Below are positions 1 through 5,408 of a stretch of DNA of 5,408 nucleotides, piece by piece; the stretch's first letter is position 1; each line of letters opens with the position of its first letter. Made by a program: the position numbers and the translations under genes. Under the pieces are notes generated by a model. It was given only the letters and a program-made list of their open reading frames with translations, did not search any database and had not been told where the DNA came from. The stretch comes from a virus (Duplodnaviria; Heunggongvirae; Uroviricota; Caudoviricetes): positions 1 through 5,408 of IMG/VR virus record IMGVR_UViG_3300029878_000190. One strand, 5' to 3'.

Positions 1-2
1 CT

Positions 3-662
3 GATAGAAACAGAAGCCACTGGAGCACCTCAAAAACACCATCATACACTAAATCAGTAAGTTGGCAGCATCACCCGGAATTTGATGAGAGCGGGAAAAG
101 CGAACCAACGGACTTATTTACCTGGTACGGTAAAGATAAAAAAGGCGACTCTCTCGCTATTGTAATTAAAAATAAAAACGGAAATGATTACTTATCTCTC
201 GGTTACTACGATCAGGACGACTACCACATTCAAAGAGGAATTCGTATTAATGGTGATAGTCTCACCCAATATTGTAGTGAAAACGCCAGGAGTGCTTCAG
301 CGTGGTTTGAAAGCAGTAAAGCTATCATGGCAGAATCATTTGCAACAGGTTCCGATCATCAGGTTATAAACGAGCTCAACGGGGAAAGACTGAGAGAACC
401 TAACGAAGTTTTTAAACGTTTAGGTCGAGCAATAAGATATAATTTTCAAGTGGACGATGCAAAATTTAGACGCGACAATGTAAAAGAAACAATTTCTAAT
501 TTATTCGCTAACAAAGTTGACGTTGACCATCCTGAAAATAAATACAAAGACTTTAAGGATCTCGAAGATAACGTTGAAAAAAGACTTCAAAATCGCCAGG
601 CGAAATATCAAAATGAAATTAATCAACTATCTGCGCCAGGTGTTAATTTTGATGATATTTAA
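3..662 (+). CDS. Uncharacterized protein, 3' portion (5'-partial; gene begins upstream of the window)
   Basis: Seen in sequence: the frame containing ORF 327..662 has no stop codon from position 3 to the stop at 660-662 (about 219 codons), and has no ATG/GTG/TTG before 327, so the gene must start upstream of the window. Composition is AT-rich (about 30-37% GC on sampled 60-nt lines, versus about 55-60% in mlaA). By synteny this position upstream of mlaA corresponds to yfdF in E. coli K-12, but I do not recognise the protein sequence itself, so no symbol is given. Confidence 0.6.
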   Translation, partial: DRNRSHWSTSKTPSYTKSVSWQHHPEFDESGKSEPTDLFTWYGKDKKGDSLAIVIKNKNGNDYLSLGYYDQDDYHIQRGIRINGDSLTQYCSENARSASAWFESSKAIMAESFATGSDHQVINELNGERLREPNEVFKRLGRAIRYNFQVDDAKFRRDNVKETISNLFANKVDVDHPENKYKDFKDLEDNVEKRLQNRQAKYQNEINQLSAPGVNFDDI

Positions 663-1892: not shown

Positions 1893-2825
1893 ATGGACAA
1901 CGACAAAATTGATCAACACAGCGACGAAATTGAAGTTGAGAGCGAAGAAAAAGAGCGCGGCAAAAAAATAGAAATAGATGAAGACCGACTCCCCTCCCGG
2001 GCGATGGCAATTCATGAGCATATCCGCCAGGATGGTGAAAAAGAGCTGGAACGCGACGCAATGGCGCTACTGTGGTCAGCCATTGCGGCGGGTCTGTCGA
2101 TGGGCGCTTCGTTACTGGCAAAAGGGATATTTCATGTCGAACTGGAAGGTGTGCCGGGCAGCTTCTTGCTGGAGAATCTCGGTTATACCTTTGGTTTTAT
2201 TATCGTCATTATGGCCCGCCAGCAATTATTTACCGAAAATACCGTGACTGCGGTACTACCCGTCATGCAAAAACCGACAATGAGCAACGTCGGCTTACTT
2301 ATACGGTTATGGGGCGTCGTGCTGCTGGGTAATATTCTCGGGACAGGTATTGCGGCGTGGGCATTTGAATATATGCCTATCTTCAATGAAGAAACTCGCG
2401 ATGCATTTGTCAAAATCGGCATGGATGTGATGAAGAACACCCCCAGCGAGATGTTTGCCAACGCGATCATTTCCGGCTGGCTGATCGCCACTATGGTTTG
2501 GATGTTTCCTGCAGCGGGTGCGGCAAAGATTGTGGTGATTATATTGATGACCTGGCTTATTGCCCTGGGTGACACCACCCATATCGTGGTCGGTTCTGTT
2601 GAAATCCTCTATCTGGTGTTTAACGGTACGCTGCACTGGAGCGATTTCATCTGGCCCTTCGCACTACCTACTTTAGCGGGGAACATCTGCGGCGGCACCT
2701 TTATCTTCGCGTTAATGAGTCATGCACAGATTCGTAACGACATGAGCAATAAGCGTAAAGCAGAAGCACGCCAAAAAGCAGAACGTGCGGAAAACATTAA
2801 GAAAAATTATAAAAACCCGGCATAA
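1893..2825 (+). CDS. yfdC: Inner-membrane protein of the formate/nitrite transporter (FNT) family, YfdC-like
   Basis: 310-aa ORF, ATG at 1893, TAA at 2823-2825. Acidic, charged N-terminal tail followed by several hydrophobic helices, typical of FNT channels. Position between mlaA and argW matches K-12 yfdC. Overlapping antisense and out-of-frame ORFs in the track are treated as shadows. Confidence 0.85.
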   Translation: MDNDKIDQHSDEIEVESEEKERGKKIEIDEDRLPSRAMAIHEHIRQDGEKELERDAMALLWSAIAAGLSMGASLLAKGIFHVELEGVPGSFLLENLGYTFGFIIVIMARQQLFTENTVTAVLPVMQKPTMSNVGLLIRLWGVVLLGNILGTGIAAWAFEYMPIFNEETRDAFVKIGMDVMKNTPSEMFANAIISGWLIATMVWMFPAAGAAKIVVIILMTWLIALGDTTHIVVGSVEILYLVFNGTLHWSDFIWPFALPTLAGNICGGTFIFALMSHAQIRNDMSNKRKAEARQKAERAENIKKNYKNPA

Positions 2826-2860: not shown

Positions 2861-2889
2861 TTACCCCGCACTCCATTAGCGGGTATACT
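2861..2889 (+). promoter_or_regulatory. Putative sigma-70 promoter of argW
   Basis: Seen in sequence: -10 TATACT (2884-2889), 17-bp spacer, weak -35 TTACCC (2861-2866). A GC-rich discriminator (CATGCCGC) lies between the -10 and the tRNA start, as is common for stringently controlled stable-RNA promoters. The tRNA starts 11 nt after the -10. No transcription start site data. Confidence 0.45.
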
Positions 2890-2900
2890 CATGCCGCATT

Positions 2901-2975
2901 GTCCTCTTAGTTAAATGGATATAACGAGCCCCTCCTAAGGGCTAATTGCAGGTTCGATTCCTGCAGGGGACACCA
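2901..2975 (+). tRNA. argW: tRNA-Arg (anticodon CCU), with encoded CCA end
   Basis: Seen in sequence: 75-nt cloverleaf. Acceptor stem GTCCTCT / AGGGGAC (one G-U pair), anticodon loop CUCCUAA giving anticodon CCU, T-arm GCAGG-TTCGATT-CCTGC, discriminator A then CCA. Matches the E. coli argW tRNA from memory. Confidence 0.92.
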
Positions 2976-3070
2976 TTTATCAGTTCGCCTCCATCCGTAC
3001 CAGTCCGCAAAATCCCCTGAATATCAAGCCTTCCGTAGATTCACAGTTCGTCATGGTTCGCGTCAGATCG

Positions 3071-3100
3071 TTGACAGCCGCACTCCATGACGGGTAAAAA
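3071..3100 (+). promoter_or_regulatory. Putative integrase promoter
   Basis: Seen in sequence: consensus -35 TTGACA (3071-3076), 18-bp spacer, -10-like TAAAAA (3095-3100), about 37 nt upstream of the integrase ATG at 3137. The spacer sequence closely resembles the argW promoter spacer (see findings). Inference only. Confidence 0.3.
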
Positions 3101-3136
3101 GTGGATAAAATAATTTTACCCACCGGATTTTTACCC

Positions 3137-4294
3137 ATGCTCACCGTTAAGCAGATTGAAGCAGCAAAGCCGAAAGAAAAACCATACCGCCTTCTCGATG
3201 GTAATGGCCTGTACCTTTATGTCCCTGTATCAGGGAAAAAGGTATGGCAGCTTCGCTACAAGATTGACGGTAAGGAGAAAATCCTGACCGTAGGAAAATA
3301 TCCGCTAATGACTTTGCAGGAAGCAAGAGATAAAGCATGGACCGCGAGGAAAGACATCTCGGTTGGCATCGATCCGGTAAAAGCGAAAAAGGCTTCGTCT
3401 AACAACAATTCCTTTAGTGCCATTTACAAGGAATGGTACGAGCACAAGAAGCAAGTCTGGTCAGTAGGCTATGCAACTGAACTTGCCAAAATGTTTGATG
3501 ACGACATTTTACCCATCATCGGCGGTCTTGAGATTCAGGATATTGAGCCGATGCAACTGCTGGAAGTAATCCGCAGATTTGAAGATCGCGGTGCAATGGA
3601 GCGAGCAAATAAAGCCCGCAGAAGATGCGGCGAGGTTTTCCGTTACGCTATTGTCACCGGCAGGGCTAAATATAACCCGGCACCTGACCTTGCAGACGCC
3701 ATGAAAGGATACCGCAAGAAGAACTTCCCGTTTCTTCCTGCAGACCAGATCCCGGCATTCAACAAAGCACTGGCAACATTTTCAGGAAGTATCGTATCGC
3801 TCATTGCGACCAAAGTTTTACGCTACACAGCCCTAAGAACGAAAGAGCTTCGCTCCATGCAATGGAAGAACGTCGATTTTGAAAACAGGATTATCACCAT
3901 CGACGCCAGTGTGATGAAGGGCCGCAAGATTCATGTTGTTCCTATGTCAGACCAGGTGGTTGAACTTCTCACTACGCTAAGCTCAATCACTAAACCAGTA
4001 TCAGAGTTTGTTTTTGCCGGGCGCAACGATAAGAAGAAGCCAATCTGCGAGAACGCGGTATTGCTTGTGATTAAACAAATCGGCTATGAGGGTCTGGAAA
4101 GCGGTCACGGATTCAGGCATGAATTCAGCACGATTATGAACGAGCACGAATGGCCTGCTGACGCTATTGAAGTGCAACTTGCACATGCCAACGGCGGATC
4201 TGTGCGCGGGATTTACAACCATGCTCAGTATCTAGATAAGCGCAGAGAAATGATGCAATGGTGGGCGGACTGGATTGATGGGAAGGTGGAGTGA
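3137..4294 (+). CDS. intS: Prophage tyrosine recombinase/integrase (P4-type, IntS-like)
   Basis: 385 aa from ATG at 3137 to TGA at 4292-4294. The N-terminus MLTVKQIEAAKPKEKPYRLLDGNGLYLYV is the arm-binding domain typical of P4-family integrases. The C-terminus carries tyrosine recombinase catalytic residues (R in LRYTALRTKELR, H-x-x-R in HGFRHEF, catalytic Y in GIYNHAQYL). The ORF track begins at an upstream GTG (3101); I prefer ATG 3137 because it gives the 385-aa length I recall for IntS and the GTG would lie inside the proposed promoter. Confidence 0.85.
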   Translation: MLTVKQIEAAKPKEKPYRLLDGNGLYLYVPVSGKKVWQLRYKIDGKEKILTVGKYPLMTLQEARDKAWTARKDISVGIDPVKAKKASSNNNSFSAIYKEWYEHKKQVWSVGYATELAKMFDDDILPIIGGLEIQDIEPMQLLEVIRRFEDRGAMERANKARRRCGEVFRYAIVTGRAKYNPAPDLADAMKGYRKKNFPFLPADQIPAFNKALATFSGSIVSLIATKVLRYTALRTKELRSMQWKNVDFENRIITIDASVMKGRKIHVVPMSDQVVELLTTLSSITKPVSEFVFAGRNDKKKPICENAVLLVIKQIGYEGLESGHGFRHEFSTIMNEHEWPADAIEVQLAHANGGSVRGIYNHAQYLDKRREMMQWWADWIDGKVE

Positions 4295-4387: not shown

Positions 4388-4981
4388 CTACGCCTCCGGC
4401 TGTTCAGGCCAGATGATATCCGGCGCGGTGCTGGTATCTGTTGCCGTCACCGCGTCAATGTAATCCAGCACGGCGTTAAGTCGGGTTGTTTCTGCCTGCG
4501 TCAGCTTCCGCCCGGCCTGCAATTTCAGTTGAATCAGACTGATGGAAGCCATTGCAGCATCAATCAGCGACTGGCGCTGTGCTTCTGCCGCGTCTACTGC
4601 GGCACCGTGTTGTGCCTCAGAATCTGTCACCCATTTCTCACCATCCCATTTATCATATGGCGTTGAGGGTGCAGTGCTTGTAAACCCATTCTTTATGGGG
4701 CCAATATAATCGACCATTGATGTATCACCACTTTCAGTTGAGTAAACTGTTTCCCCGCGATAATCTTCCTGCTGCTCCCATCCAATACCAGTAAATACTG
4801 GAATCTTCCCAGCCACTTCATCACCTGGCTCAATATCAGTAGAATGGCCTGGCATGCTCACACCAACATGAATATACTCATCAGACCATCCCGTATATTC
4901 AAACGTCACCGCGTCGTAGTAATAGCATCGGATTTCACCGGCTTCTTTTGCCAGTCCATTTTCATCGAAAACAGGTTTCAT
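4388..4981 (-). CDS. Phage tail-fibre assembly protein (Tfa family chaperone)
   Basis: 197 aa, ATG at 4979-4981, TAG at 4388-4390. The C-terminal signature ...LDYIDAVTATDTSTAPDIIWPEQPEA and internal blocks (GETVYSTESGD, YDKWDGEKWVTDSEAQ) match the conserved pattern of lambdoid/Mu-type tail-fibre assembly proteins such as TfaE. Start overlaps the stop of the upstream tail-fibre gene (TAATG). AAGGG Shine-Dalgarno upstream. Confidence 0.85.
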   Translation of the reverse strand: MKPVFDENGLAKEAGEIRCYYYDAVTFEYTGWSDEYIHVGVSMPGHSTDIEPGDEVAGKIPVFTGIGWEQQEDYRGETVYSTESGDTSMVDYIGPIKNGFTSTAPSTPYDKWDGEKWVTDSEAQHGAAVDAAEAQRQSLIDAAMASISLIQLKLQAGRKLTQAETTRLNAVLDYIDAVTATDTSTAPDIIWPEQPEA

Positions 4982-5408
4982 TATTTAGCCCTTACTAAAA
5001 AGTTGAATGCAATGTTACGTGGGCGTGTTTCGGTGTCGCCTGTATCTTCAATCGCCCGAAGTTGCCCGCCGCCTGGTTGGTTAATGTTGTAAGTGAGCGT
5101 TCCATTTAAACTACTATCAATACCAATAACATTGCCGGTCCCTGCACTACCTGCGCTCATGAGCAATCGGTGCGAGTGGCTTTGATAGGTATGACCCTGA
5201 GCGCTTAACAGGCCACGGCCTGCATCAACTCCGCGCCCATCATCCCAGATACGAATAAATTCACCCCGTGATTCAGTAAGAACCAGGCCAGGGAAAACAA
5301 GCGCCAGTTTCGGGTAAGTTGTCGCTGAGAATGTCGCCCCGTTGAACTTCAGAAACACCATATCAGCCCATTCAGTCATTACCGTATTGGGCATCGCCGA
5401 GGACGGCC
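4981..5408 (-). CDS. Phage tail-fibre protein, C-terminal region with tail-collar-like motif (5'-partial; gene continues beyond the window)
   Basis: Minus-strand frame is open from the window edge (5408) to TAA at 4981-4983. The track's Met at 5392-5394 is internal, since the upstream in-frame codons read P-S-S-A with no stop. The motif RGEFIRIWDDGRGVDAGRGLLSAQGHTYQSHSH resembles the phage tail-collar domain signature as I recall it. Placement immediately upstream of a tfa gene is the usual fibre/chaperone pairing. Confidence 0.75.
   Translation of the reverse strand, partial: PSSAMPNTVMTEWADMVFLKFNGATFSATTYPKLALVFPGLVLTESRGEFIRIWDDGRGVDAGRGLLSAQGHTYQSHSHRLLMSAGSAGTGNVIGIDSSLNGTLTYNINQPGGGQLRAIEDTGDTETRPRNIAFNFLVRAK

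Follow-up and report, generated by a model that had tools for sequence, protein, structure and literature searches.

A motif shared by the argW promoter and the integrase promoter of an Sf6/HK620/KplE1-type prophage: a known promoter and a probably fortuitous likeness

The DNA that we analysed (the window, 5,408 nucleotides, from IMG/VR record IMGVR_UViG_3300029878_000190) is a segment of an E. coli chromosome that runs into a prophage, and its end at 5408 falls inside that prophage (Table 1). The integrase gene lies directly downstream of the tRNA gene argW and in the same orientation, and the next gene after it is a tail-fibre assembly gene. In the int region, DNA identity amounts to 96-97% with the int genes of the P22-like phages HK620, Sf6, and CUS-3 and to 98% with intS of the K-12 cryptic prophage KplE1 (also named CPS-53), and the matching E. 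coli genomes annotate the integrase gene as intS. The host part of the window, up to about position 2976, is matched by all 5426 complete E. coli genomes, 1711 of which continue into the integrase; in the genomes that lack this integrase the match ends at about 2976. Because all genomes match to this point and only 1711 go on, the boundary between host and prophage can be placed at the core sequence CTGCAGGGGACACCAT, which is the KplE1 core as published (Panis et al. 2010, PMC2951348). An "attP core" is also annotated at the corresponding place in the HK620 and Sf6 records. The prophage is of the Sf6/HK620/KplE1 type and sits in the 3' end of argW, and the locus is its attL; attR and the gene for a TorI/HkaC-type excisionase, which belong to modules of this type, would lie at the far prophage end, outside the window. 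A simple promoter and terminator scan of the window finds no terminator-like site between argW and intS.

Table 1. Features of the window; positions are counted from its first nucleotide.
Feature	Position	Strand	Remarks
IS1 element end	1-75		inside yfdF
mlaA	between the yfdF/IS1 end and yfdC	minus	
yfdC	1893-2825		formate/nitrite-transporter-family gene
Predicted argW promoter	2861-2897	plus	-35 TTACCC 2861-2866; 17-nt spacer 2867-2883; -10 TATACT 2884-2889; GC-rich discriminator CATGCCGC 2890-2897
Motif copy 1, CCGCACTCCATTAGCGGGTA	2866-2885	plus	host DNA; lies within the predicted argW promoter spacer
argW	2901-2975	plus	tRNA-Arg(CCU); ARAGORN; Rfam tRNA 63.4 bits
att core, CTGCAGGGGACACCAT	2961-2976	none	16 nt; 3' end of argW; separates host DNA (left) from prophage DNA (right)
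TorI (excisionase) site I1, GTTCG	2983-2987	plus	from motif and converted K-12 block positions
TorI site I2, GTCCG	3003-3007	plus	from motif and converted K-12 block positions
TorI site I3, GTTCG	3046-3050	plus	
TorI site I4, GTTCG	3056-3060	plus	
TorI site I5, GATCG	3066-3070	plus	abuts the PintS -35
PintS	3071-3107	plus	-35 TTGACA 3071-3076; 18-nt spacer 3077-3094; -10 TAAAAA 3095-3100; start T3106/A3107
Motif copy 2, CCGCACTCCATGACGGGTA	3078-3096	plus	phage DNA; P' arm of attL; PintS spacer and -10 edge
IntS arm-type site, probable P'1	3090-3101	plus	overlaps the -10
IntS arm-type site, probable P'2	3101-3112	plus	
IntS arm-type site, probable P'3	3112-3123	minus	
IntS arm-type site, probable P'4	3127-3138	minus	
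Further arm-type-like candidate site, ATGGGTAAAATG	3505-3516	minus	inside the integrase gene; matrix score 17.8, second best in the window
Integrase gene, IntS type	3137-4294	plus	ATG at 3137; 385 aa; Pfam Arm-DNA-bind_3, Phage_int_M, Phage_integrase
Tail-fibre genes	3' of the integrase gene	minus	

A motif occurs twice at this locus, once on the host side and once on the phage side of the core. Both strings of the original prediction were confirmed, copy 1 at 2866-2885 and copy 2 at 3078-3096, and each lies, as had been claimed, between a -35-like and a -10-like hexamer (TTACCC and TATACT for copy 1, TTGACA and TAAAAA for copy 2). A repeat search returns the exact 11-mer CCGCACTCCAT at 2866-2876 and 3078-3088, 212 nt apart, and in both copies the 11-mer is followed by CGGGTA, after a gap of 3 nt (TAG) in the host and of 2 nt (GA) in the phage. 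The CGGGTA block is in the same register to the -10 in the two promoters, and the 11-mer is offset by 1 nt. From this likeness the integrase promoter had been read as a copy of the argW promoter. The promoters themselves speak against that reading, as their -35, -10, spacer length, and discriminator all differ.

The promoter of argW was investigated in an alignment of 13 argW upstream regions from Escherichia, Citrobacter, Trabulsiella, Kosakonia, and one unclassified Enterobacterales bin. The TTA of the -35, the TATACT, the GCCGC of the discriminator, and the tRNA are invariant, and the columns of the spacer vary freely. This pattern supports the assignment of the argW promoter because the -35 TTA, the -10, and the discriminator are kept while the spacer changes. 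The simple promoter scan misses this promoter, whose -35 matches at just three of six positions, and a literature search for a mapped argW start site found none. The alignment shows copy 1 to sit in the least constrained part of the predicted promoter. The host promoter segment is present in 5256 of the 5426 E. coli genomes, irrespective of what occupies argW; over the 55 nt from 2846 to 2900 it is identical to the window in 1780 genomes, has one or two differences in 2440, and three to five in 1036. The alleles in E. coli include CGCACTCCAT (window and K-12), CGCAGTCCAT (O157 and Z1002), CGTAGTCCAT (CFT073 and UM146), CGCTGACCAT, and CGCTGAGCAT; those in other Escherichia include CGCAGCCCAT, CGCTGCCCAT, CGTCGTTCAT (E. 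albertii), and CGCTGTTTAA (E. ruysiae and E. whittamii). The other genera carry unrelated argW spacers between the conserved -35, -10, and discriminator, and Citrobacter, Kosakonia, and Trabulsiella no longer have the GGGTA in front of the argW -10.

On the phage side, the hexamers TTGACA and TAAAAA had been proposed as the promoter of the integrase gene, and they are a real promoter that drives this gene. The promoter reading is correct, but both the promoter (PintS) and its arrangement are already known and published in detail. In a K-12 intS mutant the start of intS was mapped by primer extension to a T and an A (PMC2951348). We converted the K-12 coordinates by subtracting 2461430, using as landmarks the ATG and the cloned attL, whose 5' end lacks 13 nt of argW. 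The converted starts fall at window positions 3106 and 3107, well placed for TTGACA and TAAAAA and about 30 nt upstream of the int ATG; a transcription start downstream of 3095-3100 therefore exists, as the proposal of an integrase promoter implied. The window is identical to K-12 from the PintS -35 to the int ATG. Because the sequence is identical across the promoter, the K-12 start site, the repression by IntS and TorI, and the narrow IntS optimum apply directly to the window. Window positions 3071-3120 are annotated as a promoter in the phage records, under the label "prophage excision" in HK620 and as pX in Sf6. The simple promoter scan misses PintS, whose -10 lacks the final T, and calls only ATGACG/AATAAT (3087-3092 and 3109-3114). 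The same pair is annotated in the 1991 Sf6 record X59553; we rejected it as being at odds with the mapped start.

Copy 2 lies among the binding sites of the integrase and of the excisionase TorI. We scanned the window with a matrix built from six HK620 arm sites (consensus RTGGGTAAAAT). The four P' sites score 15.7-18.8, and the repeats of the HK620 attP map to window positions 3091-3112 and 3112-3137. We infer that these four sites correspond to the published P'1 to P'4. In K-12, P'1 overlaps the PintS -10, a TAAA is common to all P' sites, and P'1 could not be mutated without killing PintS, since it overlaps the -10 (PMC2951348). The right block of copy 2, CGGGTAAAAA (CGGGTA running into AAAA), is the IntS arm-type site P'1, because the published P'1 overlaps the -10. 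Arm-type sites of this kind recur six times in attP, and the further candidate inside the integrase gene coincides with an HK620 "attP" repeat annotated at the equivalent place. The TorI motifs GTTCG, GATCG, and GTCCG fall within 1-4 nt of the published K-12 block positions after conversion, and mutation of I4 or I5 abolishes the TorI repression of intS (PMC2951348). IntS and TorI each repress PintS about 5-fold, and the repression ratios differ between exponential and stationary phase (PMC2951348). At this locus RNA polymerase with sigma-70 would use TTGACA at 3071-3076 and TAAAAA at 3095-3100 and start at 3106/3107; integrase bound at P'1, over the -10, would shut off its own promoter, and the excisionase at I4 and I5, abutting the -35, would repress PintS as well. 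The left block, CCGCACTCCAT, would be ordinary spacer to which no site is assigned.

How often such a match arises by chance depends on how it is sought. In 1000 dinucleotide-preserving shuffles of the whole window, 3.2 exact direct 11-mer pairs are expected per shuffled window, and 4 are observed in the window itself. An 11-mer with a 6-mer match at a distance of at most 4 nt is present in 5.3% of the shuffles as a direct repeat and in a further 4.5% as an inverted repeat; in a window of 5 kb, a match made up of an 11-mer and a 6-mer is thus not rare. When the comparison is limited to host positions 2826-2975 and P' arm positions 2977-3136, the best local alignment consists of the motif and a few scattered flanking matches. 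It scores 16, which 0.34% of 20000 shuffles attain (p=0.003), and this p value speaks against a chance reading once the regions are fixed beforehand. The chance figure of about 1e-3 in the original prediction is therefore roughly right only for two regions chosen in advance; for a discovery made by scanning the whole window the figure is about 0.05.

The polymorphism of host strains and phages can quickly show whether a match of this kind is under selection. The genomes of the free phages HK620 and Sf6 contain copy 2 without any change, and it is present in 1895 of the 5426 E. coli genomes; it is absent beside argW in CFT073 and Z1002, where the site is empty or differently occupied. The phage copy varies too, with CGCACTACAT in UM146, CGCACGCCAT in O157 strain 493/89, and CGCACACCAT, CGCACCCCAT, CGCACTCCGT, and others in IMG/VR. 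Among 119 IMG/VR loci the middle of the PintS spacer reads CGCACTCCATGA in 81, CGCACACCATGA in 9, CGCACTCCGTGA in 5, and CACACCTTTTGG in 4, with other forms in the rest, and the PintS stretch CCGCACTCCATGA has the natural variants CCACACCTTTTGG and CCGCACACCATGA. Klebsiella phage Chronis and two phages of Erwinia are more distant relatives; when these are aligned with the window, TTGACAGCC and CGGGTAAAAA are invariant, as are the arm sites TTTACCC and the TorI repeats GTTCG, and the stretch matching ACTCCATGA, between TTGACAGCC and CGGGTAAAAA, is not conserved. P'2 differs at a few positions in these Klebsiella and Erwinia relatives, and the other arm blocks are nearly invariant. The middle of the motif is lost in distant relatives on the phage side and on the host side alike, and the bases shared by the two copies lie mostly in the spacer, the least conserved part in both lineages. 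The one conserved shared piece, GGGTA, is part of an IntS arm-type site in the phage; its host version scores like background.

The two copies vary independently of each other. Both 11-mers are identical in 26 of 64 integrated E. coli-type pairs, where 24 are expected from the allele frequencies, and no covariation with the host argW spacer is seen in other Escherichia species. In Klebsiella-, Erwinia-, and Enterobacter-like hosts, as judged from IMG/VR flanks, the argW spacer is unrelated to the PintS spacer of the host's own prophage. The Klebsiella- and Erwinia-like hosts were reached through IMG/VR prophage flanks only, with taxonomic labels deduced from the tRNA and phage variants, and a contig scan with the 42 nt of the argW 3' end gave 28 loci, with no Klebsiella or Erwinia genome among them. 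The alignment p value is 0.003 for the allele pair of the window. With the commonest other pairs it is 0.02-0.09, and with most of the remaining ones, among them every pair that involves E. albertii or E. ruysiae, it is 0.4-0.9. The full match is present only for particular pairs of host and phage alleles, for example those of the window and of K-12. In a true duplication, similarity would extend beyond the seed and persist across alleles, and the copies would change together or copy 2 would track the argW promoter; we found none of these. Some spacers from the non-E. coli part of the family, for example CCGCACTCTTTAGCGGGTA, agree with that of E. coli argW at 18 of 20 positions in a hand count and share CCGCACTC and TTAGCGGGTA. 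Such spacers resemble argW at least as well as copy 2 does, and the E. coli phage allele is thus not alone in its likeness. The P arm of HK620 also has TAGCGGGTA in common with copy 1.

Two promoters with a motif in common might be under common control, and the original prediction had suggested as much. PintS might resemble tRNA promoters in being controlled by growth rate or by the stringent response, or it might share a regulator site with argW. In one version of this explanation IntS would bind a degenerate arm-type site, GCGGGTATAC, over the argW -10 and tune the supply of the rare tRNA-Arg(CCU). The GGGTA does abut the -10 in both promoters and is a place of IntS binding in PintS, and the published repression ratios of PintS do differ between growth phases. 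A link to rare arginine tRNAs is also conceivable, as 6 AGA and 4 AGG are among the 24 arginine codons of the integrase; neither codon is found in yfdC or mlaA. If IntS did act at the argW -10, the level of integrase would be linked to the tRNA-Arg(CCU) that its own AGG codons need. However, we consider shared control very unlikely. Stable-RNA promoters of this type have a GC-rich discriminator, a short, suboptimal spacer of 16 nt, and an upstream UP element or Fis sites; to our knowledge, the sequence of the spacer is not a determinant of stringent or growth-rate control. The discriminator of PintS (GTGGAT, 3101-3106) is not GC-rich and its spacer has 18 nt, compared with CATGCCGC and 17 nt in argW, and the TorI sites I3-I5 occupy the 30 nt before the PintS -35, the place expected for a UP element or Fis sites. 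The idea of a tRNA-like stringent promoter finds no footing in these features, and a literature search for a connection between intS and ppGpp returned nothing relevant.

The experiments in K-12 also bear on a shared regulator site. A pattL-gfp fusion that corresponds to window positions 2914-3200, and which therefore lacks copy 1, gave the same start site and the same repression ratio, about 5-fold, as the chromosomal gene (PMC2951348), and a 220-bp attL that starts inside argW suffices for efficient excision in vitro. Copy 1 is dispensable for the start site and the regulation of PintS. This result, together with the free variation of the shared 11-mer in both lineages, speaks against a common regulator. 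The version in which IntS acts on argW fares no better. The host site at 2879-2890, GCGGGTATACTC, has TATA in place of TAAA, its GGGTA being followed by TAC and not by AAA, and reaches a matrix score of 2.9, rank 21 in the window; unrelated host positions in mlaA and yfdC outscore it with up to 11.7. As a pseudo arm site at argW the host motif does not appear distinguishable from background, as far as the arm-site matrix can tell, and we rejected this idea as unsupported. In addition, the Klebsiella and Erwinia phages keep their arm sites, and Citrobacter, Kosakonia, and Trabulsiella have lost the GGGTA in front of the argW -10.

The likeness might instead be the footprint of an old recombination event at the tRNA gene. 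Part of the P' arm might come from a captured argW promoter region, or patches might have been template-switched from the host side of attL about 200 bp away, and the homology would since have decayed. The region-limited p value of 0.003 fits such a history; nevertheless, we consider it unlikely, and nothing specific supports it. For most natural allele pairs the similarity drops to chance, intermediate forms were not seen, and the right block of copy 2 is fully accounted for by an arm-type site that recurs six times in attP. The position of the motif argues in the same direction: it follows the core and lies next to int, and an imprecise excision that captured host DNA from the left of the core would be expected to leave it in the P arm. 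The D-loop of argW (AAATGGATATAA, 2913-2924) and P'2 (AAGTGGATAAAA, 3099-3110) form a second, weak colinear match, but its score is only about 8 (10 of 12 positions by hand), compared with a mean best score of about 9 in shuffles of a larger region pair. We rejected the idea that colinear homology extends further between the P' arm and the argW promoter with its tRNA, as the D-loop/P'2 match is all that we found of it and does not rise above chance. The centre of the host spacer is unusually polymorphic and is flanked by the inverted repeats CCCCGC and GCGGG, a setting that is known to favour templated mutation.

Fragments derived from the tRNA gene do occur elsewhere in elements that target argW. 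In HK620, 16 nt of the argW T-arm recur without a mismatch 294 bp upstream of the core, which demonstrates that such fragments do exist outside the core of this attP. A second family of integrases at argW (Z1002 and E. albertii) has a stretch of about 80 nt upstream of int that runs colinear with argW, starting at the -10 and reaching the T-loop, a likeness seen in 0 of 2000 shuffles. Neither Rfam nor ARAGORN recognises this argW-like stretch (locus L037) as a tRNA. The second integrase family is unrelated to the IntS family. One could assume that the int-proximal arms of argW-targeting elements repeatedly carry decayed patches of the argW promoter and the 5' part of the gene, weakly here (17 of 20 positions in the PintS spacer) and more clearly in the Z1002/E. 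albertii family, with the further possibility that IntS touches the argW -10; we think this generalisation very unlikely to be right. If it were true, the argW-derived patches would record how attP sites of this kind originate, or that short stretches were exchanged by templating between the P' arm and the host part of attL.

The explanation that we favour is that the likeness between the argW promoter and PintS is a coincidence of two GC-rich, weakly constrained promoter spacers, with neither common descent nor a shared factor behind it, and that copy 2 is part of PintS. We hold this coincidence to be likely. The promoter, its start, and its repression by IntS and TorI have been demonstrated in K-12, and our comparison reveals that the two copies vary independently; that the resemblance itself is due to chance is what these observations suggest. 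The likeness to argW would matter only if PintS shared control with a rare-codon tRNA or if it pointed to the origin of the attP arm, and the comparative data are against both. It has little significance beyond correct annotation. The region itself is a textbook case of an integrase promoter that lies within attL, where the integrase and the excisionase both shut it off, and this arrangement keeps the integrase in the narrow range of concentrations that permits excision.

Compared with known systems, the argW promoter has the GC-rich discriminator of stable-RNA promoters; PintS differs from these promoters in its consensus -35, its 18-nt spacer, and its discriminator, which is not GC-rich. The int promoter of phage P4 resembles PintS in that it overlaps att arm sites and is repressed by Int and Vis (discussion in PMC2951348). 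However, P4 is a different element with a different tRNA target and a different sequence, and according to the authors the mechanism may differ in detail (PMC2951348). The free phages HK620 and Sf6 have an attP (AF335538, AF547987, X59553) whose 160 nt from the core to int are nearly identical to the window, and the same promoter and arm repeats are annotated there; in place of the host argW promoter these phages carry the P arm ATGGGTAAAATAGCGGGTAAAAT.

The closest counterpart is the attL with PintS of KplE1 (CPS-53) in E. coli K-12 (Panis et al. 2010, PMC2951348), which occupies the same chromosomal site (yfdC-argW-intS) and shares the core of 16 nt. K-12 and the window do not differ in PintS, in the P' arm sites, in the five TorI motifs, or in the host allele of copy 1. 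Over the 81 nt from 3056 to 3136 there is one difference (98.8% identity), at 3062 between I4 and I5, where the window has G and K-12 has T. The body of the KplE1 prophage differs from that in the window, where a tail-fibre assembly gene follows int; in K-12 it is presumably the O-antigen glucosylation genes that follow intS. With its integrase, core, sigma-70 promoter, TAAA arm sites, and five TorI sites in two blocks, the window carries a recombination module of the KplE1/HK620/Sf6 type.

A second integrase family, unrelated to the first, is found at the tRNA-Arg gene argW in 231 of 5426 E. coli genomes. Between the intact tRNA gene and the ATG of its integrase gene, a stretch of about 80 nt runs colinear with argW over the interval from the -10 element to the T-loop. 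An earlier match in this stretch reads TATTCTCATGACG against TATACTCATGCCG in the host, a later one ATTGCTGGTTCGATT against ATTGCAGGTTCGATT, and the two are spaced 79 nt apart in the argW-like stretch and 76 nt apart in the host. The alignment to argW has a score of 21, which none of 2000 shuffled sequences reached. Neither ARAGORN nor Rfam calls a tRNA in the stretch. The likeness to argW is weaker in one relative, from Trabulsiella, and absent from another.

Part of argW is also found in phage HK620, where 16 nt of the T-arm, TTGCAGGTTCGATTCC, recur without a mismatch (L001, the HK620 locus, 277-292; window 2946-2961). The copy ends exactly where an att core would start, but the real core lies 294 bp further downstream; the copy overlaps the annotated cII-dependent integration promoter. 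The genes hkaC and hkaB lie between the copy and the real core, and the Sf6 homologue of hkaC is listed as a probable excisionase. By our own arithmetic, about 7e-5 such 16-nt matches would be expected by chance.

The centre of the spacer in the argW promoter (2869-2875) is a hotspot of multi-base differences, with at least six alleles in E. coli and further ones in other Escherichia; the 55 nt around it are nearly fixed. The inverted repeats CCCCGC and GCGGG flank this centre, and the polymorphism may have arisen by templated mutation at a quasi-palindrome.

At the integrase gene promoter, PintS, an 8-nt inverted repeat (CGTCATGG at 3049-3056 and CCATGACG at 3085-3092) brackets the -35 hexamer, and one of its arms falls within the downstream copy of the spacer motif. 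This repeat is probably due to chance, because the Klebsiella and Erwinia relatives do not preserve it. In the 1991 Sf6 record X59553, another pair of hexamers, ATGACG/AATAAT (window 3087-3114), is marked as the int promoter, and this pair is also the sole site called by a simple promoter scan; it does not fit the start mapped at 3106/3107.

Within the integrase coding region, ATGGGTAAAATG (3505-3516, minus strand) strongly resembles an arm-type site for the integrase IntS. Its matrix score of 17.8 is the second best in the window, and the equivalent position is annotated as an attP repeat in the HK620 record. Of the 24 arginines encoded by the integrase gene (3137-4294), 10 have rare codons, six AGA and four AGG; neither codon occurs in yfdC, mlaA or the tail-fibre assembly gene. 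AGG is the codon read by the tRNA of the neighbouring argW.

The window opens with the end of an IS1 element (1-75) inserted in yfdF; the terminal inverted repeat of the IS1 element stops at about 75 (...GTTGGCAGCATCACC). The IS1A transposase and yfdF are annotated at the window start in matching genomes, and the first 700 nt have a median of 10 match places per genome.

Coordinates of the argW-like stretch and of the genes following the integrase
Feature	Coordinates	Strand	Remarks
argW-like stretch	L037 599-678 (E. coli Z1002)		also in L008 (E. albertii)
Tail-fibre assembly gene	4388-4981	-	Pfam Caudo_TAP; directly after int
137-aa ORF	4981-5394	-	no match in Pfam

With the tail-fibre assembly gene and the 137-aa ORF after int, the content of this prophage therefore differs from that of the K-12 prophage KplE1, given the KplE1 gene order; yet KplE1 has an identical attL.
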